Positions 3,850-55,840 of a DNA stretch of 64,000 nt are shown here, one piece after another (position 1 is the stretch's first letter; the number at the start of each line of letters is the position of its first letter). The stretch is from a virus (Duplodnaviria > Caudoviricetes). Location: the IMG/VR virus record IMGVR_UViG_2684623128_000006, positions 1 through 64,000 of that record; one strand, given 5' to 3'. The notes under the pieces were generated by a model, which made no database searches, was not told where the DNA came from, and saw only the letters and a program-made list of their open reading frames with translations. Made by a program: the position numbers and the translations under genes.

Positions 3850-3969
3850 TAGGTTCATTCACACAAAATGCCAGGATTAGAAAGCAATCTTAGATATTTG
3901 ATAAGTTATTGTTTTTATTGGATTTTATGTCTTTTTGTGTCGATGAACAGCGCCAAAACATTGGATAAG

Positions 3970-4001
3970 TTAGTTTCAGTTCTGTCTAGAACTGAAACTA
4001 A
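3970..4001. other. lox-like recombination site
   Basis: TTAGTTTCAGTTC-TGTCTA-GAACTGAAACTAA: perfect 13-bp arms with asymmetric spacer, between the divergent recombinase and c1 genes as loxP is in P1. Confidence 0.65.
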
Positions 4002-4680
4002 AAGGGTTTTTTTTGAAACTCACCACGACAATCACCCGTCTGTGGCAATATAATGACGGTGTTACGCGGTCACGCGACACGAACAAACATGCATATCCTC
4101 AATTATTATGCGGTATAGGTCACGTTCTCAAAACCTACCTGCTAGTAACGATATGTTTGCATTATTTTGCATATCTAGACAATCAAAGATCACAGTCTCA
4201 TAATACTCCGCGAACATCAGCTCGGTTGGCGAGAATCCCCTAAACTCTTTCCAAATCAGAGCTATATACGTATTGGCTATCCAGTCAATTGGCTTAAGAG
4301 ATATAGATATGCACTGCACGTTGAATCAATTAATTCCAGTCGAAATACTAGATAAATGTGACCTGTCCCTAGATGTATTTAGCAGCTCGTTCCTCGATGA
4401 CGCGACCGACATTTGCATGATGCATCTTATCCAATCGCATCCGAACGCACTATGCAATTCATCCATTAATCGTGATGATGTATTAAACTTCGTTAGAGAT
4501 CACTTCTCCGCTTAAAAAGCAACACTTATAACGTTCTTCTGTTCGTTTTTTATTTAATTCCGAACACAAAAACGGTATGCTACGCATCAAGGATAAAGGT
4601 AGGGTTTTTCGTTACTCGCATACGCTCAGGGATGGAGTGTAACCTTTATCCTCCAATGTAATTTGGAGCAACCGTTCACC

Positions 4681-5676: not shown

Positions 5677-7176
5677 TTAAACATCGTCCGATTCAAGCGC
5701 TTCTAGTACCCATTGTTCTACGGAACTGCGAGACTCTAGCATGCTCTCTGTTACTTCCATTTCGTGCGGCACATAATCTACCAATTGAGAAAAACAGTAT
5801 GTATCCCAACGGTCAGGTGATGGGATGTTCATTTTCTCTTTCATCATCGGTTTTGGCATCATTACCCATTGGCCTGACTCGTTGATTGCACAAGGTATTT
5901 TACTGCCTTGTTCTGCCGTCTTGACGTTCTTATCTATCTGCATGCGGCCTTGGTTTATCGCATCCCGAGCCATAACATTGGCATACGCACGCTGGTTAAA
6001 GAAACGCTGCTTATCGCTGGTGGAGTGCATCTTCTTACCCCAACGAATGCGCTGTACGCGCCGTCCGTAACGTTCTAAGCAAGTCGCCGTGTCATAACCT
6101 ACACCGTCACTATCCACTGCTATCGTGATGTTTGGGTACAAGTCCTCACTACACTCTGCATGGATAATGTCAGCGAACCGAACCGGATCGACCGTGCTTG
6201 GTTGTTCAAGCAATTTCACACTCTTAACGATGCGCTCCATGCGTTGACCCCAAACCTTGCAGATATTGAGTATCGAGCGGTCACGACCATTACCCACGTC
6301 CACCAGCGCAGCCCAACCCCAACCATCGGGCATATCGAGGTTAAGCCTTGCGCTTTTGTCCAGTGCATCCCGACTAAGCAGCATGCCAGCAATAGAACTT
6401 GGGAACTCCCCACGTACTTTAATCAGGTATTCCGGTGCCTCTCGACCGCCATACTCCAATCGCTTATCAAGGATAAATTCCACGGTTACGAACGGAGATT
6501 CCTCGGAGTTAAGCCGGATGGCTCGCCATCGACCACTAGGCTCGGCTAATCGGTGATGCGTATCGTAGAAATAGCCGCTAGGGCGCGTTGGCTGGCTCAA
6601 TAACAGCATTCGGTTATCTTTCTCGGTCAATGCCCCCGCTAACACACCAAAAGCCTTGTCAGAGACGCCTGACGCCTCATCGACAATAACAAACAAGTGT
6701 TTAGCGTGTTCACCCGCTAGCGCTTCCTCGTTACCAATACGGCACGATTTAGCACTGGTTTGCCAGATACCTTTTGCTGAGTTTTCAAAAAAGGCTGTCT
6801 CGGTAATGGTGAAGTATTGCTGCAACCAACCATGCTTTTGTAAGAGCGTGTTCCAGTTGGATTTTAGGTACTTCCATACACCGATTTGTACCTGTCTCGC
6901 GTTGTTCGCCACTAGCACAACACGCGCATTGGGGAAGCAGAGCATGAAAGCAATGATCATGATACTGGTCATGTCTGACTTGCCTGTACCGTGGCCAGAG
7001 CTGACAGTCGTTCGCGCACCAATACGCTGAGCACTATCAATGATTTTGCGCTGCTGCCAGCTCGGCTTCTTACCGACTAGCTCAACAGCGAGGCGTTTCC
7101 AGTCATAGCGATACCGCTTAACTAGGGCAGGGTAACGGGGATCTTGTGTTACGCTCTTTATTCGTCTAGCCACCAA
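5677..7176 (-). CDS. pacB: Terminase large subunit (PacB-like)
   Basis: Walker A SGHGTGKS, Walker B VIVDEASG, RNase H-like DVGNGRD and SPDRWD. Confidence 0.92.
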   Translation of the reverse strand: MVARRIKSVTQDPRYPALVKRYRYDWKRLAVELVGKKPSWQQRKIIDSAQRIGARTTVSSGHGTGKSDMTSIMIIAFMLCFPNARVVLVANNARQVQIGVWKYLKSNWNTLLQKHGWLQQYFTITETAFFENSAKGIWQTSAKSCRIGNEEALAGEHAKHLFVIVDEASGVSDKAFGVLAGALTEKDNRMLLLSQPTRPSGYFYDTHHRLAEPSGRWRAIRLNSEESPFVTVEFILDKRLEYGGREAPEYLIKVRGEFPSSIAGMLLSRDALDKSARLNLDMPDGWGWAALVDVGNGRDRSILNICKVWGQRMERIVKSVKLLEQPSTVDPVRFADIIHAECSEDLYPNITIAVDSDGVGYDTATCLERYGRRVQRIRWGKKMHSTSDKQRFFNQRAYANVMARDAINQGRMQIDKNVKTAEQGSKIPCAINESGQWVMMPKPMMKEKMNIPSPDRWDTYCFSQLVDYVPHEMEVTESMLESRSSVEQWVLEALESDDV

Positions 7177-15523: not shown

Positions 15524-16252
15524 TTATGCGGCTAGTCTAGTTTTGTTATCAAATGTTGGCAATTGGAGATAGCTATTAATTTGACAAATGCACTCATCAA
15601 ACCCCTTGGCCACAACCACGTAATACCCTAGATTTTGGAACATTTTTATCTTTTCCTGTTGTTCCTTACTTGGGCGACCTTTTTCCGTTTTCACCTCCAA
15701 AAAGAACCCGTGATACACCCCTCTCGGGATAGGAAAAAATATATCTGGCACACCTTTCTTTTGTCCCTCATAGCTCATCATCGAAGCCGCTTTAGGTGTT
15801 CGGTAGCCACCATTAGGGATTGAGAAAACCAGCGGGTAAATGTCCTTGTACTGCGTCTCTAACGTGTAGAACAAACGCACCTGTAACCAGTGTTCGGCCA
15901 GCTTCGTGTCGTTAAACTCTTTCGGGCGCTTAATCCCTTGTGCAAGGCGCGTTTTGTGTGGTGAATCCAGTTCCACTTTCTTCTGTGTCGCAGCGCGCGC
16001 AACGTCAATGTCTTTCTCAAGAATACGAATGAGCCAGGCTGGTAGCTCTGACTTGTCCACCAGCGCAGTATTTGGGACGTTTATCGATACCGGATTGATG
16101 ATGTGATTAACAGAACGGTTAATCTCGTTAAGTGCTGCATCAATATTGAAGTCGCCGCCGTGGCCAGCTTTCACGCCTTTGCTTTTCCACTTCTTGCGCT
16201 TAGCAACTTGGTTTGCGAGAAAAGAGTGATCGAATCGTGATGCTCTGACCAT
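15524..16252 (-). CDS. VRR-NUC domain nuclease
   Basis: SIPNGG, GVPDIFF, FLEVKTEKGRPSKEQ. Confidence 0.88.
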   Translation of the reverse strand: MVRASRFDHSFLANQVAKRKKWKSKGVKAGHGGDFNIDAALNEINRSVNHIINPVSINVPNTALVDKSELPAWLIRILEKDIDVARAATQKKVELDSPHKTRLAQGIKRPKEFNDTKLAEHWLQVRLFYTLETQYKDIYPLVFSIPNGGYRTPKAASMMSYEGQKKGVPDIFFPIPRGVYHGFFLEVKTEKGRPSKEQQEKIKMFQNLGYYVVVAKGFDECICQINSYLQLPTFDNKTRLAA

Positions 16253-36012: not shown

Positions 36013-36067
36013 CTCAAATTTTCGCATGCGAAAAGTTCTCGCATGCGAAAACTTTTTGGAGACAACA

Positions 36068-36493
36068 ATGATTACCCAAGTGAAATTGCCTACCGTTGAA
36101 GATCTACAGCCCTTACTCGATGAGGCGCTAGAAACAGCGCAAAGCAAAGAAGCATTTATCCAAGCTCAAGTAGATGGCATTTACAAAACACTTAAAGCCA
36201 ATCCGCTCATGTACCGTCACTATGGCGCTTATTGGTGGGCGGTTAAATCGCTCATGGCCAAGCATGGTTATGACCTTGGCAGCGATTCAGAAGTGATCAC
36301 AGAGCAACACTTCAATTTCGAAGACCCTGCGATTTTGTTGTGTGCTGCGTGGGCGTACCAGCAAGAGCAAGTTGATAAAGGCTACTGGCAAGCAAACCTA
36401 CATACCTACTACGTCGATGATGAAGAATTTGAATATTCTATCGAGGACGTAAATCTCGAAGCGTGGAGTGTTAACAGCAAATCGATGCGTTAA
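36068..36493 (+). CDS. ulx: Ulx-like protein (Dar incorporation factor)
   Basis: NPLMYRHYGAYWWAVKSLM matches recalled P1 Ulx; directly follows darB. Confidence 0.78.
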   Translation: MITQVKLPTVEDLQPLLDEALETAQSKEAFIQAQVDGIYKTLKANPLMYRHYGAYWWAVKSLMAKHGYDLGSDSEVITEQHFNFEDPAILLCAAWAYQQEQVDKGYWQANLHTYYVDDEEFEYSIEDVNLEAWSVNSKSMR

Positions 36494-36996
36494 GTTTTCG
36501 CATGCGAAAACTTTTTCTCATATGCCCGTCATTTTTGGCGGGTATTTTTTTGCATGGAATTTGGTAAGAAGTTCTCGCATGCGAAAACTATACGGAATGG
36601 GATGTTTTAAAGTTCTCGCATGCGAAAACTTTTGAGATAGAAAAAATAAACCCCGCCACTGAACAAATGGCGGGGATTGCACGTTGAACAGATAAGCTTT
36701 GATGCAATCAATCCTACCCCTAATAGTTTTGTTGCCGCCTATCTGTAATTTAATGTATATGAAATAATTTTCATATTCAACAGGTTTTTCAATATTTTTT
36801 ATTAAAAACAATGAATTATGCAACTGGGTGCTGTTCCCTTCTTATGCCTGTTGACGCTGCTCTTTGTAACCTAGTTAAGTAATAGAATTGTCAAAAAGTT
36901 TTCGCATGCGAAAACACATGGAATCAATCTCACAATTTATCTGATGTTCTCGCATGCGAAAACTTGTGCAATTGGTTCTGTTTGTTACTTTTTTTC

Positions 36997-38996: not shown

Positions 38997-39017
38997 AGTT
39001 CTCGCATGCGAAAACTT

Positions 39018-39350: not shown

Positions 39351-39442
39351 CCCCTACTCCCAAATGCAAAAACGCCAGATTTGACAATTAAATCTGGCGT
39401 TTTTGTGTCTATAAAGGTTGTATAGGCAATATATGCCAAGAA

Positions 39443-39695
39443 CTATTTTATAGCATGCCTCGAAGCGTTTGCAAGTTCGTCCAGTTGCACACTAGACTCG
39501 AACATAAAGCCTGTTTGTACCCCCTCGTTTTCTAGCTCTTGATTTACACGCCCAAGAATATCAATAAGCGATGCACCGCCGCCGCCAAACATATCCCCGA
39601 GCGCTTGGCCTTGGTGAAGCAGCTCACTATTGATTGCCTCGGCCATTGCCTTAAATGCCAGTGTCATGCGTTTTGCGCTTCGGTTGTTCGCAGCA
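39443..39695 (-). pseudogene. ddrB: 3' remnant of a ddrB-like gene truncated by the IS
   Basis: AANNRSAKRMTLAFKAMAE..GDMFGGG resembles the DdrB C-terminus; expected position after darA-ddrA; frame starts exactly at the IS right end. Confidence 0.65.
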
Positions 39696-39830
39696 TTGAC
39701 ATACTCCCCTAGCTAATTCGCTAGGGGATTCTTAGTTCAACACGCTTTCACTAGATAGCCTCTTTTGAGGCTATCCCCGATCCAGTCGCTCCCTAAGCTA
39801 ACCCCGCCAGTCCAGCGGTTTTTATATTCT
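39676..39830 (-). ncRNA. TnpB omega/reRNA scaffold plus guide (guide about 39676-39695; 5' end approximate)
   Basis: Hairpins downstream of tnpB ending in TCAA at 39696; flanking TGCTGCGAACAACCGAAGCG would form the guide. Confidence 0.7.
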
Positions 39831-40887
39831 TCGCTGCGTTAATATCACGATCATGGTGCGTATTGCATTCTGGACAAGTCCAGTTTCGGATATTAAGCGG
39901 CATTGATTCGTGTACGAATCCACAACAGCTACAACGCTTTGAGCTAGGGAAGAAGCGCTCTATCTCAACGATAGTTCGTCCAGCCCATTCTGCTTTGTAT
40001 TTGAGTTGGCGAACGAACTCACCCCAACTCGCATCAGCGATGTGTTTTGCTAGTTTTGGATTGCGGAGCATGTTCTTCACTTGTAGCGATTCAACACAAA
40101 CAACTTGGTTTTCGTTTATCAGTTTGCGAGACAACTTGTGTAAGTTGTCTAATCGACTATCAGCAATTTTCGCGTGTAGACGGGCTACTTTCTGGCGCAC
40201 CTTAGCGCGATTATTACTGCCTTTCTTTTTCTTGGCGAGTTGACGCTGTAGGTATGCCAGTTTGTTTTGGTAGTGTTTGAAGTGGCGAGGATTATCGACT
40301 TTCTCACCGCTATCTGTGATGAACAGGTTATTTAAACCCAAATCAATACCAACCGTTTTAGCGGTTACAGGCATTGGTTTAGGCTCAAAACGGCATAGCA
40401 TAGACACAAAGTATCGGCCTGTGGTGTCTTTTGAGATTGTGACTGTGGTTGGTTCGCTAGGTAGTTCACGACTCCAACGGATATTAAGTGGCTGCTTGGA
40501 CTTGGCAATGAATAGCTGTCCATCGCGGAACTTAAATGCAGATTTGGTGAACTCAGCAGACTGTTTGTGACGTTTCTTTTTTTCGACAGGGTATTTTGCT
40601 CGACCCTCAAAGAAGTTCTTAAAAGCAGCTTGCTGGTGACGTAGTGATTGTTGCAAAGGCACACAAGAAACATCATTAAGCCAGCTTAACTCCGGATCTT
40701 TCTTAAACTCGGTCAATCGGCTTGATGCTGCGTTGTAGTTCACCTTAATTTTGTCATTACGGTAAGCGTCAATTCTCCAACGTAGGATTCTGTTGTAAAC
40801 AGTTCGCACACAACCGAACGTTCTTGCTAGAAGTTCAGCTTGATCATCAGTTGGATAAAACCGTTGTTTGATTACGATCTCTTTCAT
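39793..40887 (-). CDS. tnpB: TnpB RNA-guided endonuclease
   Basis: N-terminal HTH; RuvC VGIDLG, VCVESL and HDRDINAAKNI; Zn finger CSCC..CPEC; D-E-D triad intact. Confidence 0.97.
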   Translation of the reverse strand: MKEIVIKQRFYPTDDQAELLARTFGCVRTVYNRILRWRIDAYRNDKIKVNYNAASSRLTEFKKDPELSWLNDVSCVPLQQSLRHQQAAFKNFFEGRAKYPVEKKKRHKQSAEFTKSAFKFRDGQLFIAKSKQPLNIRWSRELPSEPTTVTISKDTTGRYFVSMLCRFEPKPMPVTAKTVGIDLGLNNLFITDSGEKVDNPRHFKHYQNKLAYLQRQLAKKKKGSNNRAKVRQKVARLHAKIADSRLDNLHKLSRKLINENQVVCVESLQVKNMLRNPKLAKHIADASWGEFVRQLKYKAEWAGRTIVEIERFFPSSKRCSCCGFVHESMPLNIRNWTCPECNTHHDRDINAAKNIKTAGLAGLA

Positions 40888-40955
40888 GTCTTACAAACGC
40901 TTTTGACTTAACTCATTGAGTTAGCCCCGCAATAAACGGGGCTTTCTCTCCTGAT

Positions 40956-41225
40956 TTAACTTGTCTGGAAGTCCATTTTTTCTAGGGCAAGTTCAAACCC
41001 CGAGCAAAACAGATATTGAGCGTCCAGAATTGAATCAACGCGAAGATCACCACCACAAAGCAGCCAATCTTGAAAATGCTGTTCTGGCGAATCGTTCCAA
41101 TCGACAGGTTGTAAGGCGTTGTAGACCTGACAAAGAAGCTCTACAGGCGCGTTTAGATCTTGGGAGAGGTAGTCTTGCGCAGCTTGAAGTGCGGCGCGCA
41201 TGTTGATTGTAGAAGTGCCAATCAT
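40956..41225 (-). CDS. Small acidic hypothetical protein under C4 antisense control
   Basis: RBS (CAGGA) overlaps the C4 target CTTAACAGG. Confidence 0.65.
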   Translation of the reverse strand: MIGTSTINMRAALQAAQDYLSQDLNAPVELLCQVYNALQPVDWNDSPEQHFQDWLLCGGDLRVDSILDAQYLFCSGFELALEKMDFQTS

Positions 41226-41278
41226 GATTTCAGTCCTGTTAAGTTATTGTTTAACTCACCAAAACCGAGGCTAACCAG

Positions 41279-41358
41279 TGGTGGTGAGCTGATTCGGGAT
41301 TAGCCTTACCGCTTAACAGGAAACGGCGCACCGAAGTGCTCCCAAAACAGCCCACCAT
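41279..41358 (-). ncRNA. C4-type antisense RNA (P1/P7 C4, P4 CI-like)
   Basis: ATGGTGGGCTG...GCACTTCGGTGC...CCTGTTAAG...AGGCTAA...CAGCTCACCACCA cloverleaf; loops complementary to targets at 41416-41438 and 41235-41274. Confidence 0.85.
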
Positions 41359-41382
41359 AATTAGGATGTGCAGATTTCACGC

Positions 41383-41499
41383 AATAAAAAACCAGCAGGG
41401 TGCTGGCGACTTGCGCCTGTTAAGTTTCGAGAGGCTAATCTCGACACTGGATTTTGCCAGTGCCCAAATAGATTAACTCCAAAAAAATAGGTTTTGCAA
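41383..41499 (-). promoter_or_regulatory. C4 upstream target (a1/b1) leader with terminator and promoter
   Basis: TTGCAA..TAATCT promoter; CACTGGCAAAATCCAGTG hairpin; TTAGCCT and CTTAACAGG targets; CCAGCAccCTGCTGGTTTTTT terminator. Confidence 0.75.
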
Positions 41500-41900
41500 G
41501 TCGTTTTTTAATATAATTTTTTATATGCAATCTGGCAAGTGTAAAAGCGTTGATTTTAATGCTGTGTTCGGAATTTATAGTGAGCAAGCTTTGTCGTATA
41601 ATCCCTAATCACCACAATAGAATTAACTAGAAAGGGCAGCGCTCCTCTCCTCCCTCTTTCGGGAGGGGTATCCACGCTGAAACATTTAGGTGGCGAGTTT
41701 TCGCATGCGAGAACTTTTGGGATAGGGAAAAGGATTAAAGGCTCTTAAGCAATGCGAAAAGCGCCTTGGCGTAGTTATGACGTTCGCTGGCTGCTAGTGC
41801 AAGGTTTAAAGATTGCTTGTAGTAATAGTCTGCTCGGATTTTAGTGAAAACATTCATCGTTTTTTCTCAAGTTCTCTGAAAAGTTTTCGCATGCGAAAAC

Positions 41901-45600: not shown

Positions 45601-47446
45601 GGGTATCGAGCGTAGACTGAGGAATTTCATCAACGCCTTTGTCCTCAACCCATTGGTCTAGCGCTTCGGTTGCGATGCGCTCCGCTTCTTCTAGGTCGCC
45701 CTCAACCATGCCAAATAGCGGCTCTAGGTCAAAGTTACTTACTAATTCTGGTGGCAGTTTTTGGTCATAAGCGATCGCACCGTGGCGAATGCCATTACCA
45801 GCGTCAGCGAATTGCTCTTTAGCCGATTCTGGATCGAGGTACTTAACCACTTGATGTTGTGGCGGCGTCGTACCCAAGCCATAAGGGCGTAGACGTAGGC
45901 CATACCAGAATAGGTTATCCGTGGTTTCGTCTTTGTCTTGGTCGTTCGCGTTTGGCTCGTCGTTCTCAATTGATTGTGGTTCTTCGTTGCTGTCATCGGT
46001 ATCTTGAAGCAACTTAGATTCGCGATCGTAGTCAGCCAGAATAAGTGATTTAGCAGCTTCCCAACCTTGTAGATCGTCGCCACCAGCAAGCGGTGAACCC
46101 TCGCCGTAAGTGACAGCCAAGGTTTGGTTATCGCGCGCGTGGATCATGTACTGGCCAAAGCTATCATCGTCGTTCGCGTCAGGCGATTCGAAGTAGACAA
46201 ACGGCTCGCTATCTTCGCCTTTATCCATCTTCCAGCCCTTAGCAATGGTCTTGCGACCAATAAGAGCCAATAGCCATTCTTTGCGCTCGATATTTGCTTT
46301 TCGTTCCCGTTCTTTGTCTGACAACTGAGGAAAATCGTTTTCAATTGAATCACGGATGTATTCTTTAGCCTCGGCAAGCTCTGATACCGTCATAGCACCT
46401 TTATCGAGGTCATAAATCACATCATTGATATACGACTCTGAATAAGTGCTAGGAACGTTTTGATTTGCTGCACCTGCAAACTCTAATGAGTCTTTAAACT
46501 CTTGGCTTAGCTGTTTAACAAAGGCATCAAGATCGCCATTGAAGGCACGGTTAATGATGAAGTCGCGTTTCTCTTGCTTAGTCCATGAAGCGTCCCATTG
46601 CTCGATCACTTGAGACGAGCTACCACCAGCGTTTACATTTTTCGTTGCTGTATTTGCTGCTGGCTTGATAGCAGCAAGCTGTTTGCGTAGTTCTTCTTGG
46701 ATTTCGTTCTGCGTAGCAATCTGAGTTTCCAAGCGCTTCTCTTTCTTGGCCAGCTCATCGAGCTTTTGTTCCAAGTCGGTAGCTTCTTCGCCTAGTTGCG
46801 CAGCTTGTTCATCAAGTTCTTGTGCCTTTTGTTGCGCTTCTTCCAATGCTTTCTTGTCAGCGTCTTTCTTGGCCTTAGCAGCGACAAATTTCTCGCTGTT
46901 GTTTTCAAGCAACTGCGCTAGCTTGTTGGTCACTTCCTTAAGGGATAAATCCATGTTGCCCTTTGGCGCGACTACGTGAGTAATATCGCGCGAGTTCATT
47001 AGAAAGCGGAACGCGATTAACGTGTCATCTGGATTGATTTTTAGCGGATCGTTATCCGGCGCATGGAACGCAATAGAAATGCTCTGGCCATCTGAAAACG
47101 GGATTTTCACCATTTGGACAGCAACCGCACCAGACTTGCGCGGTTTGCCTACTTCAACGGCTTCTACCGATAAAGTAGGGGTTTTACGCTCCAAGTGCTT
47201 ACCGAATTGCTGAGCACGAAATTCAAGCCTTGAGGCTTTCGATTTGAACGCCTCTAGCATCATTTGTGGCACAGGTTTGCACTGATACAAGTAGGTGTTC
47301 TCCAAATCCTCAAGTGACAATGCTTCTAGGATTTGATCGGCGTTTTTACCTTGCAGCACCGCTTCAATCTGCTCCGGCGAGAGTTTCTTGGCCAGATGGT
47401 CGATGCGATCCACAATCTTGATTTGATTTTGACTGGTAAACATCAT
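42653..47446 (-). CDS. darA: Enlarged DarA-like antirestriction/polyvalent head protein
   Basis: DarA N-domain (FSDGQSISIAFHAP..DITHVVAP), DarA C-like YGLRLRPYGLG..RHGAIAY, LPD-like NNSDTMTDYHDRNFFG; 1597 aa. Confidence 0.82.
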   Translation of the reverse strand: MMFTSQNQIKIVDRIDHLAKKLSPEQIEAVLQGKNADQILEALSLEDLENTYLYQCKPVPQMMLEAFKSKASRLEFRAQQFGKHLERKTPTLSVEAVEVGKPRKSGAVAVQMVKIPFSDGQSISIAFHAPDNDPLKINPDDTLIAFRFLMNSRDITHVVAPKGNMDLSLKEVTNKLAQLLENNSEKFVAAKAKKDADKKALEEAQQKAQELDEQAAQLGEEATDLEQKLDELAKKEKRLETQIATQNEIQEELRKQLAAIKPAANTATKNVNAGGSSSQVIEQWDASWTKQEKRDFIINRAFNGDLDAFVKQLSQEFKDSLEFAGAANQNVPSTYSESYINDVIYDLDKGAMTVSELAEAKEYIRDSIENDFPQLSDKERERKANIERKEWLLALIGRKTIAKGWKMDKGEDSEPFVYFESPDANDDDSFGQYMIHARDNQTLAVTYGEGSPLAGGDDLQGWEAAKSLILADYDRESKLLQDTDDSNEEPQSIENDEPNANDQDKDETTDNLFWYGLRLRPYGLGTTPPQHQVVKYLDPESAKEQFADAGNGIRHGAIAYDQKLPPELVSNFDLEPLFGMVEGDLEEAERIATEALDQWVEDKGVDEIPQSTLDTLKQVGFKAAFAKQLRQQPEMKNRKENPNAYKLWSASIDLVTPDMIQEIAEDLMLVQSDAELQRQAEHTQGRMRFQEAALSQLKDMQSVNPSDRKRLVMLADLTLGTGKTLKRGEKVDDQAKRISEQAHLVESLQGETLASLEAQFKNRKEITDFLTAHRIPFNRRAKRADLLQAILNYRDGFFSATAKMFDLRALRGDLYEKFENGEALALDDVEKAFSATTVYHEGDVAYTKAKGETVIPAMADQGEDYQKVERFIKAIDDGIYPDLSELSSDELFAQHYAMASVTNQDILAIHGFRYLDNDEQIDNEQMVRAIHNSVMPLWYTKAIEAEYESRGFPSLAALPDLNHKGQFKATREKRYAPVGTIGQSDFSVIDTYTGKVLETGLEGAAAQQKATQLNDQAVKESTIAIFNMLKDGKTLEQIAETEYSAPLEPVSPAMFTTINGFESLYSTLAINGSGSLHSRPTLRENADKLLAKVDDDGKINGIALTEEQENQMENTFGYSFFSAKSNKGKELRFIANTNSRSYLTVDGANKLLELLGAKNAVESDTADEVSKGASEEEKQLLALDPTQYSFGSIYESEGIRDTGEIAKRIRAFIAQLKKAGKISNDVKISVRKPRYGTLDLTLTDLPRNVMLYNPAYLQFEIDNPNSPAPHGMSRYTEAVDQLIEFVNAYVGQYDYNNSDTMTDYHDRNFFGGRLTVDFDFGKERKVVELASLTEMHQQGEQAEDDVLDVTSFRESLDEEEAKALEQLEAFTNLELKLGKQEVTFPTGRVKSINAKDEDGLTYSLDVLFDILATDLSEKAKAQLETIKDWQSADTYYNEIGALVQPSVAAGIHSVNGSVPANVYAPLIARSWLNESHADIYPIAKDGEYKFALYQGNDLIGEFDDTAEMEALLVKAFNLSSEAPQSETEGNNEEMEHVEKLKEIRDFTGEPTPELVDEFQTALEQAYAHFEANDQIAENEALMDAALSNITSMIQAQI

Positions 47447-48075
47447 GACTTTGCCGCCTCTAATTGTGCTTCAAGTTCTTTGGTTTCTTGCTTCTCTTGC
47501 TCTAATGCAGTTTCGAGATCTGCTATGCGGCGTTGTTCTTCTTCCAACTTAGTGCGAACGCTATCCCGAGCGGCTAGGGCATTGGTGTAATTGGACTGAG
47601 CGACTTGTTCAGCCGCTTTGGCTTCTTCAAGTCGCTTAGCAATAGAACGTGTAGCTGGTTGAATGTCTGAGGTGTCTTTAACGGCTTTAGCCGCTTTACG
47701 TGCAACTTGCTTGTCAAACTTGCTTTGGTTGCGCTTCATTAGGCGAACCATTTCACGCGCAAGCTCGCGCTCGTTCTTCACGCTAGGGATAGGCTGTTTA
47801 GTGCTGTTGAGTGTCATTTGGAAAATATCACCCTCATCACCAATAAACAGCGTCATTGACTGGCCATTATCAAAGAATAACTTGGCGCGTTTAACTGTCT
47901 CGCCGTCTCGTCTCGTTCTCTTGTTCGAGGCTTCTACGTCTGTAACAGTCGCACCAGCTTGTTTTAACGCAGTGATCAGACTCTTAAGGCCGCGTTCGGT
48001 CACGTTGTCAAAATCGACCACCACATAGTTATGTGACTGGTCTAGTGCAAACTTACTGTTGTTACGCAATTTCAA
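47443..48075 (-). CDS. hdf: Hdf-like protein
   Basis: VDFDNVTERGLKSL..FDNGQSMTL..GDIFQMTLN; lies between lydB and darA. Confidence 0.8.
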   Translation of the reverse strand: MKLRNNSKFALDQSHNYVVVDFDNVTERGLKSLITALKQAGATVTDVEASNKRTRRDGETVKRAKLFFDNGQSMTLFIGDEGDIFQMTLNSTKQPIPSVKNERELAREMVRLMKRNQSKFDKQVARKAAKAVKDTSDIQPATRSIAKRLEEAKAAEQVAQSNYTNALAARDSVRTKLEEEQRRIADLETALEQEKQETKELEAQLEAAKS

Positions 48076-48795: not shown

Positions 48796-49196
48796 TAAAT
48801 CCCCCTTTAGTATATTACCTAGCGAGTGTATTCGGAATGGTGGCTTTTGCTCAATAGACGGGCGTTACTTACTTTTGAATGGGTATTAAATAGGGCTGTT
48901 TTGCGGAAAAAAGTTAGATTTCAAGAGCCTATATAAAAAAGAAGCCTCTCACCCAAAAGGCTGGTGAGAGGCTAATCCAAGCGTTTTGTTGCGCGGCAAC
49001 GCATACAAAACTTCCAATGAGGATAGTCGAGTCGAATCGATATTTGACGAGGAAGATTATATAAATATTGGTTTTCGCATCAATATGCGCCCATGTTTTC
49101 GCATGCGAAAACTTTAGGGGATGCCATGTTTTAAAGTTCTCGCATGCGAAAACTTTTGCAAAAAAAGGGACAGCATCGTGTCCCTTTGGTTGATGG

Positions 49197-55725: not shown

Positions 55726-55840
55726 GTTTTTCGCCTTATTGGTGTAAAAGTTTTCGCATGCGAAAACTATACGGGATGATGTTTCTTAAAGTTCTCGCAT
55801 GCGAAAACATCCGTGTCTTTCTTGCTCCGTGCGAAAACTT

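Follow-up and report, generated by a model that had tools for sequence, protein, structure and literature searches.

The 64,000-nucleotide stretch analysed here (the window), positions 1 to 64,000 of IMG/VR virus record IMGVR_UViG_2684623128_000006, belongs to a Vibrio P1-like phage-plasmid and carries an insertion sequence (IS) of the IS200/IS605 type, which is 1994 bp long, lies at 39696-41689 on the minus strand and encodes the RNA-guided nuclease TnpB. The explanation that we favour, with somewhat better than even confidence, is that this element is non-autonomous and stranded in a gene related to ddrB of phage P1, that its guide fits the intact ddrB of sibling phage-plasmids, and that a sibling would be cut if TnpB is expressed. 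The element would have inserted 3′ of a TTCAT motif within the P1 DdrB-like gene, and a later deletion of 1173 bp, flush with the left end of the element, would have removed the TCAT flank together with most of the gene. The guide of the omegaRNA would thus correspond to the 20 nt of ddrB behind the transposon-associated motif (TAM), and the sole DNA now recognisable to it would be the intact ddrB of siblings, the resident copy being spared because TCAA stands in place of TCAT. TnpB, if expressed, would cut a co-resident or incoming sibling, and this could end either in loss of the sibling (exclusion) or in repair from the resident copy, which would transfer both element and deletion to the sibling (homing, or gene drive). 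Expression of TnpB and its omegaRNA, cleavage, immobilisation and control of tnpB by a C4-type antisense RNA are the parts of this scheme that we infer. The idea of homing and exclusion by TnpB is itself already known from engineered plasmids; the new points here are that the case is a natural one, that the copy is stranded and that a candidate RNA switch takes the place of the transposase gene tnpA.

The guide matches intact ddrB-like alleles of sibling phage-plasmids

On the right-hand side of the element, at 39443-39695 on the minus strand, lies the 3′ remnant of a DdrB-like gene (84 codons and a stop), which is 99.5% identical to an intact allele (L001, 3001-3800). Siblings hold an intact gene of 481 aa at the place of the remnant, as exemplified by L001, and the remnant represents its C-terminus. 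The intact L001 allele matched PHROG 2299 (phrog_2299) with E=1e-198 and the window remnant with E=1.7e-25, while the 481-aa Vibrio protein spans just positions 22-443 of the 995-position profile. At the nucleotide level, the remnant is 75-77% identical to the ddrB genes of P1 and RCS47, the latter being annotated as DdrB. By sequence, the Vibrio protein thus falls within the DdrB family, and the label 'ddrB' seems fair for this shorter homologue.

The 20 nt directly 3′ of the right end, TGCTGCGAACAACCGAAGCG, are at the same time the first 20 nt of the remnant (39676-39695, minus strand). This putative guide is the reverse complement of window 39676-39695, and its frame, AANNRS, runs on to the stop at 39443. 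The sequence-only reading that preceded this work had described the guide as the in-frame AANNRS part of a ddrB remnant, which is what we found. It had furthermore applied the pairing rule of IS608 to the GATA at the left end of the element, predicted a TCNT target motif, and proposed that in an intact allele the match would be preceded by Phe-Ile (TTC AT|T). We therefore read the bases upstream of the guide match in all intact alleles that were found, those of nine Vibrio plasmids, two IMG/VR contigs and one E. coli P1-like plasmid. TTCAT stood directly 5′ of the match in all twelve (9/9, 2/2 and the E. coli allele), so that the Phe-Ile codons are present in 11/11 Vibrio-type alleles as well as in the E. 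coli allele, and a motif predicted a priori, with a chance of 1 in 64 for a random 4-mer, was found in 12/12 alleles read. The match itself is 20/20 in one allele (NZ_CP054704.1), whose plasmid has its own copy of the element elsewhere, 19/20 in nine Vibrio-type alleles, which share a synonymous G-to-T change at position 7, 18/20 in one further Vibrio-type allele and 15/20 in the E. coli allele. The match between guide and ddrB is homology and not chance.

On the other side of the element, the alignment to L001 restarts only 16 nt into the start of the gene, having run on the first side up to the right end. What the window lacks is L001 3801-4973, that is 1173 bp of the ddrB-like gene, beside the left end of the element. 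The deletion junction at 41690-41706 (minus strand) has CCAC instead of the expected TCAT and then the first 16 nt of the gene. The rest of ddrB had been described as absent on this side; this holds for the 1173 bp, but the first 16 nt (ATG + 5 codons) survive at 41691-41706. The CCAC at 41690-41693 was read correctly, and so was the TCAA (39696-39699) that precedes the resident copy of the guide. Three origins of the deletion were considered, namely recombination between two copies of the element, use of an alternative TnpA cleavage site and self-cutting by TnpB, and none of them fits the junction, which consists of CGCCA, one C and the left end.

Ends, target motif and mobility of the element

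The boundaries at 39696 and 41689 were set by three other full copies, two in sibling plasmids (L002 and L003) and one in an IMG/VR contig of the same family (L123), with which similarity ends exactly at these positions. The four copies, including that in the window, are 94-96% identical over precisely 1994 bp and occupy four different sites. The order within the element is left end, promoter-like site, isrK-like leader RNA, C4 antisense RNA, an open reading frame (ORF) of 89 codons designated ORF89, tnpB with the putative omegaRNA, and right end. Each end has a subterminal hairpin, the foot of which is preceded on its 5′ side by a 4-nt guide (GATA with TCAT at the left, GAAT with TCAA at the right). 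In the left end (41647-41689, minus strand), 17 nt separate the boundary from the left guide (G_L) GATA at 41669-41672, which is followed by the hairpin at 41647-41668. The right end (39696-39731, minus strand) comprises the right guide (G_R) GAAT at 39728-39731, a 22-nt hairpin at 39706-39727, the spacer AGTATG and the cleavage site TCAA at 39696-39699. In this reading we assumed the right-end layout of IS608; the GAAT/TCAA layout recurs in relatives.

The L003 and L123 copies are clean insertions without target duplication. The flanks of the former are adjacent bases in the window, where the empty site at 47442-47466 (plus strand) reads ATCAT and then matches the guide of the L003 copy at 20/20 positions; in L126 the flanks of the latter directly adjoin each other. 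Around the L002 copy the flanks are rearranged, and 265 nt at the left one have no match in the window. The 57-nt right flank of this copy (3946-4002) is 100% identical to window 16009-16065 and is duplicated with 91% identity at 6710-6766, 2.7 kb away in the same plasmid, so the L002 copy has travelled with a piece of an old flank. The whole 2-kb unit, bounded as above, has therefore been mobile. A remnant of 457 bp is present in pFORC14 (L097, NZ_CP011408.1, 2501-2957), where C4, part of ORF89 and the right end are kept and tnpB and the left end are missing; it adjoins a parDE toxin-antitoxin pair on an unrelated replicon.

In the rule described for IS608, pairing takes place between the 4 nt that precede the hairpin foot and the tetranucleotide of the cleavage or target site (PMC3201880). 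Indeed, the left flanks of the three other full copies, all of which carry G_L GATA, read GTCAT, ATCAT and TTCAT, in agreement with the predicted TCNT. Among 80 TnpB relatives from species-representative genomes, a hairpin scan classified 29, and 29/29 fit IS608-type pairing of G_L with the flank: GAAA, GAGA or GATA occurs with TCAT (18 loci), AAAG or AAGG with TTAC (7) and AAAA or AAGA with TTAT (4), counts that describe a pattern rather than a blind test, since guide and flank were read together. One GATA locus (L060), on a contig of 1.5 kb, reads TCAA and is possibly a junction of a right with a left end; the remaining 50 of the 80 loci were left unclassified, the scan having picked another hairpin or none.

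The 83-kb record that contains the window has no second copy of the element and no Y1 (HUH) transposase (PF01797), for which control genomes were positive; the element is therefore non-autonomous. For IS608, the flank that serves as the left cleavage site (C_L) is described as necessary for further transposition (PMC3201880). Because the deletion has taken the flank that IS608-type transposases need, and tnpA is absent from the record, it is a reasonable inference that the window copy is fixed and that precise excision is no longer possible. An IS605-type element whose tnpA and tnpB are divergent is present in the sibling plasmid L096 (NZ_CP046807.1, 133049-134702); its right-end 36 nt are 92% identical to those of the window element, and the GAAAGA loop of the left-end hairpin is common to both. 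The TnpA of the L096 element might act in trans to move elements of the window type, and the target of the L096 element itself, by our reading of the pairing rule, would be CCNC.

Within the element, a GC-rich hairpin that lacks a T-run lies between ORF89 and tnpB (40923-40943, minus strand). It is preceded by GAAA, stands 53 nt ahead of the tnpB start and resembles the left-end hairpins of tnpB-only relatives. The 68-nt gap in which it lies shows 0-1 differences between copies. A left end at this hairpin, near tnpB, was ruled out by the three other copies, which share sequence up to 41689. Conceivably, the left end of an older and shorter element has survived in this hairpin, or the hairpin is an attenuator.

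Guides of other copies and TCAA alleles at their empty sites

The relation between guide and sibling sequence extends to other copies. The guides of 3/4 copies find TAM and protospacer in siblings that lack that insertion, and for two guides the match is perfect. The guide of the L003 copy has 20/20 matches after ATCAT in the window and in seven other records. The guide of the L002 copy matches TCAT alleles with at most one mismatch, which is TAM-distal; in the window itself it matches 20/20 at 16004-16028 (plus strand), with GTCAA ahead rather than GTCAT.

The change from TCAT to TCAA recurs. At the L002 site, five element-free alleles read GTCAT and five GTCAA, the window being among the latter. 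At the L003 site, L111 reads ATCAA, and its flanks differ from those of L003 at 3 and 0 of 300 positions, compared with 30-41 flank differences for ATCAT alleles at this site. In all, TCAA alleles were seen in the window (16004-16028) and in L111, L114, L118, L121 and L122, whereas none of 11 alleles at the ddrB site is of this kind. A deletion running from the TCA in the flank to that in the right end would leave just this T-to-A change at the last TAM base, which is also plausible as an escape mutation. By either origin, a TCAA allele would no longer carry the TAM. These alleles, which come from two sites only, are suggestive of a trace of past targeting or of element loss. Element-free alleles in which the last base of the TAM is the base that ends the element have the form expected of drive-resistant alleles.

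TnpB is under purifying selection and is probably matched to its own target motif

The tnpB gene (39793-40887, minus strand) encodes 364 aa with helix-turn-helix, OrfB_IS605 and Cas12f-like TNB domains, and PF01385, PF07282 and PF12323 all scored above their cut-offs. Residues 8-361 align to ISDra2 TnpB (E=2e-72), with conservation of the RuvC D-E-D residues and of the CxxC..CxxC zinc finger. The gene is intact in 4/4 copies and has a ratio of nonsynonymous to synonymous substitution rates (dN/dS) of 0.08-0.22; it is constrained by purifying selection.

In ISDra2 TnpB, contacts to the TAM are reported for Y52, S56, K76, F77, Q80, T123 and N124 (PMC10097598). The window TnpB has Y, S, C, V, Q, T and K at these positions. 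When relatives of at least 300 aa were compared, four truncated ORFs having been dropped, the first three contacts were Y, S/N and C/S in 18/18 TCAT-type relatives, and in TTAC-type relatives H, E, S (10/12) or Y, D, A (2/12). Residues 8-75 of the window protein are likewise closest to TCAT-type relatives (up to 69%), compared with 44-50% for 10/13 TTAC-type relatives and 59-62% for the Y/D/A pair L042 and L091. Residues 141-364 are closest (85-88%) to two Vibrionaceae relatives, among them L098, which has a TTAC flank. TnpB thus looks like a recombinant mosaic, and the comparison suggests that an N-terminal exchange swapped the TAM specificity. It also supports the view that the TAM-reading part of TnpB matches the TCAT target of the element itself.

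The putative omegaRNA scaffold (39696-39930, minus strand) overlaps the 3′ end of tnpB and the right end. These last 235 nt, scaffold and right end together, show 1-3 differences between copies and are the least diverged part of the element. In an alignment of 15 sequences, which included 12 relatives, 11/37 predicted pairs showed compensatory changes, and a search for a matching Rfam family gave none. Contigs of two RNA-seq runs (X3 and X4) cover 39400-41800 at a depth of 10-20, compared with 276-390 on the neighbouring contig, figures that are no measure of transcription, strand or ends and may reflect DNA carry-over. No reads of two raw-read runs with the same species label (X23 and X24) aligned there, which carries no weight either way.

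An isrK/C4 RNA module occupies the position of tnpA

Between tnpB and the left end are 800 bp that the sequence-only reading had passed over and that hold an isrK/C4 RNA module and ORF89. The isrK-like leader RNA with its terminator hairpin (41386-41463, minus strand, as are all features of the module) matched Rfam RF01394 with 67.4 bits (gathering score 50), and a site search placed a terminator-like site at 41391-41407. The C4-type antisense RNA (41277-41362) matched RF01695 with 58.7 bits (gathering score 45) and has its loop a at 41312-41320 and loop b at 41298-41307. These are the sole such Rfam matches in the window. By complementarity to C4, two upstream targets lie in the leader (a1, 41416-41424; b1, 41431-41440) and a downstream pair at 41234-41276 (b2, 41267-41276; a2, 41234-41243). 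The loops are exactly complementary over 9-10 nt to a1/b1 and a2/b2, and a2 overlaps the Shine-Dalgarno sequence of ORF89 (40956-41225). A promoter-like site, TTGCCA-17 nt-TATATT, matches the consensus at 41510-41538, upstream of isrK and inside the element, whereas none was found in the 68-nt gap ahead of tnpB. ORF89, which takes the position of P1 icd or Gifsy-1 orf45, is intact in 4/4 copies with dN/dS of 0.18-0.27; it had no Pfam or PHROG match and just six near-identical Vibrio homologues.

In the immI regions of P1 and P7, the C4 antisense RNA acts on two target pairs, and heteroimmunity arises by covariation of loop and target. A comparable covariation is in place here. Among the four copies and the pFORC14 remnant, the second segment of C4 (loop b) occurs in three versions and the first (loop a) in two, and both target pairs change to match. 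The covariation of loops and targets implies that the module is being maintained. Whole-sequence C4-target RNA duplex energies overlap between cognate and non-cognate pairs.

The module belongs to the element. C4 is found in 0/3 element-free sibling plasmids, and in 2/2 element-bearing siblings it is found solely inside the element, which rules out that the plasmid's own core immI was hit by the IS. C4 or isrK was found within 3 kb in 0/80 of the TnpB relatives, and BLAST detected the upstream 800 bp in none of them. In phage phiV10, a Bro-N antirepressor gene comes after the homologous RNA region, and in Gifsy-1 the isrK promoter is reported to drive orf45-anrP (PMC4825925); in the window, the gene that follows ORF89 is tnpB, and no antirepressor gene is found there. 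The isrK/C4 module probably controls tnpB. In a Vibrio alfacsensis phage-like plasmid (L129, NZ_CP140106.1, 2501-4411), an isrK/C4 region 80% identical to that of the window is followed by two small ORFs and then by a same-strand gene of the TnpB family, whose product is just 35% identical to the window TnpB. This is apparently a second, independent pairing of a C4 module with TnpB. A full-text literature search found no paper that joins C4 antisense RNA with TnpB, and within the reach of such searches this cargo appears to be unpublished.

Alternative explanations

That the element is being maintained is supported by the conservation of tnpB, ORF89 and the omegaRNA region across copies. Several observations weigh against cutting of siblings by the window copy. 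Nine of the 11 intact Vibrio-type alleles mismatch the guide at position 7, in the TAM-proximal part, and cleavage by ISDra2 TnpB is reported to be abolished by double mismatches in the TAM-proximal 12 nt (PMC10097598). One stem-loop, present ahead of the right-end hairpin in most relatives, is missing from the scaffold. Expression and activity of TnpB and its RNA are predictions, and repression of the operon by C4, if it works here as in P1, could keep TnpB silent once the phage-plasmid is established. Some of the alleles are not independent of each other, given that L011 and L012, two of the nine plasmids, are near-identical records. Most generally, the guide of any TnpB insertion matches its own empty allele, so that the match alone is insertion history and not evidence of selection for exclusion.

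The last point leads to the alternative that fares best, which we nevertheless consider rather unlikely: the element could be an inert relic, the relation between guide and target being the footprint of an old insertion and TnpB of the stranded copy having no effect on other plasmids, whether through rare encounters between siblings, a block to cutting by the seed mismatch or lack of expression. That the guides of IS200/IS605 TnpB elements all match their own empty site follows by construction from the scheme described by Karvelis et al. (PMC8612924), and the position-7 mismatch in 9/11 alleles, the loss of the TAM-bearing flank and the absence of tnpA from the record are equally what such a relic would present. 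However, a relic does not readily account for the state of the genes and RNAs: tnpB and ORF89 are intact in 4/4 copies with dN/dS of at most 0.27, the omegaRNA region has diverged less than any other part of the element, and C4 loops and targets co-vary, so the module is being maintained. The T-to-A alleles at two other sites, at the TAM position, also suggest past targeting or element loss.

A second alternative takes the C4 module as its starting point. Here tnpB would have come to stand in the place of an antirepressor gene, giving a burst of TnpB on entry into a cell without the cognate C4 and silence afterwards, and the nuclease would be a dedicated weapon or drive between phage-plasmids and not a factor for transposon maintenance. 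C4 and isrK score above the Rfam gathering thresholds, loop and target co-vary in the four copies, a2 overlaps the ribosome-binding site of ORF89, and C4 occurs among five siblings just in the two element carriers, inside the element, as it does in the record of the window. The antirepressor gene behind the homologous RNA region of phiV10, the orf45-anrP genes reported to be driven by isrK in Gifsy-1 (PMC4825925) and the unrelated TnpB that follows isrK/C4 and two small ORFs in L129 also agree with such an exaptation. Yet co-transcription of ORF89 and tnpB would have to be assumed, the two genes are 68 nt apart with a hairpin between them, and C4/isrK was absent within 3 kb of all 80 TnpB relatives. 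Capture of cargo with no regulatory meaning could also account for the association. We regard exaptation of this kind as improbable. Only slightly less doubtful appears a scheme in which a TnpB gene drive is combined with a phage immunity switch, the isrK/C4/ORF89 module having replaced tnpA. TnpB and its guide would be produced in a burst on entry into a cell without cognate C4, just when an element-free sibling is encountered, and silenced thereafter; copies that differ in C4 specificity and in guide would target each other's empty sites, and the TCAA alleles would be resistant scars or escapes, all of which would amount to traces of RNA-guided conflict among sibling phage-plasmids.

Finally, it is hardly credible that the 2-kb block is no transposon at all and was spread among phage-plasmids as a cassette by homologous or illegitimate recombination, as the rearranged flanks of the L002 copy (the 57-nt duplicate 2.7 kb away and the 265 nt without a match in the window) and the deletion at the left flank of the window copy could indicate, because two copies lie exactly between adjacent bases of a sequence that is uninterrupted elsewhere, every intact left flank ends in TCAT as the GATA of the element predicts, and both ends have the hairpin and guide layout of IS200/IS605.

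Comparison with known systems

The preferred reading, in which a stranded element is aimed at the intact ddrB of siblings, builds on features that the window element shares with ISDra2 and IS608: a TnpB with RuvC D-E-D residues and a zinc finger that would work with an omegaRNA, subterminal hairpins whose 4-nt guides define where cleavage occurs, insertion, with no duplication, 3′ of a motif of 4-5 nt, a guide derived from the DNA past the right end, and a right end (TCAA) that is unlike the TAM and so spares the occupied site. The target motif differs, being TCAT as opposed to TTAC in IS608 and TTGAT in ISDra2. Unlike those elements, the window element has no tnpA, the slot of which is filled by the RNA regulatory module and the 89-aa ORF, and the window copy has lost its TAM flank.

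A model of TnpB homing was originally put forward by Karvelis et al. (PMC8612924), and a homing and anti-plasmid effect is reported for an IS605 element on engineered F plasmids by Mears et al. (bioRxiv 10.1101/2025.02.20.638934), where cutting by TnpB is described as giving advantages in both invasion and defence. The situation considered here is similar in that an IS-borne TnpB on a low-copy plasmid faces element-free variants. The role of TnpB as homing nuclease, plasmid gene drive and anti-plasmid factor has so far rested on engineered constructs, and in the account of Mears et al. natural guides are stated to be unidentified; at the present locus, natural guide-target pairs can be read, at the level of sequence.

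With regard to the RNA module, the resemblance is to immI of P1 and P7 (c4-icd-ant) and to isrK-orf45-anrP of Gifsy-1, which likewise consist of a leader RNA, C4 and a small ORF with its ribosome-binding site in a C4 target. As in the P1/P7 immI regions, which give rise to heteroimmunity, there are two target pairs, and specificity variants co-vary in loop and target. Unlike in those systems, the downstream gene is tnpB and the entire module is enclosed by transposon ends, with which it moves; no similarity of ORF89 to Icd or ORF45 could be detected. A transposase gene has been swapped for a C4-type antisense-RNA switch with several co-varying specificities, and this suggests that the C4 switch gives entry-timed control, at the RNA level, of an RNA-guided nuclease. 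Accessory regulators inside IS605-family elements that restrain the genes of the element are also described for Arc-carrying IS605 elements (bioRxiv 10.64898/2026.09.24.754181); according to that account Arc is a protein repressor beside tnpA, whereas the candidate regulator in the window is an antisense RNA and tnpA is absent. The TldR proteins, which are nuclease-dead TnpB-like repressors, offer a further parallel as TnpB relatives that are fixed in place and use their guide for a function of the host or element. The window TnpB keeps its catalytic residues and is therefore not a TldR.

Genomic setting and further observations

The 3.8 kb around the locus are 100% identical to plasmid record NZ_CP013486.1, and the replicon, cluster 803, is common to about ten sibling plasmids. 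Genes nearby encode ParA/ParB, a DarB-like protein of 2239 aa, a DdrA-like product (by PHROG match) and a protein of 1597 aa. An E. coli IncY P1-like plasmid (L015, NZ_CP021729.1, 1-388) has a divergently oriented gene of the TnpB family some 100 nt upstream of its ddrB.

A 16-nt palindrome, TTTTCGCATGCGAAAA, recurs with at most two mismatches at 14 intergenic places in the window, giving 28 strand-matches where 0.34 were expected. Its sites are at 36019-36962, 38999-39014, 41698-41713, 41884-41899, 49096-49152 and 55751-55807; 7/14 places cluster upstream of parA, and one overlaps the start codon of the ddrB-like gene. These palindromes could be centromere sites or operators.

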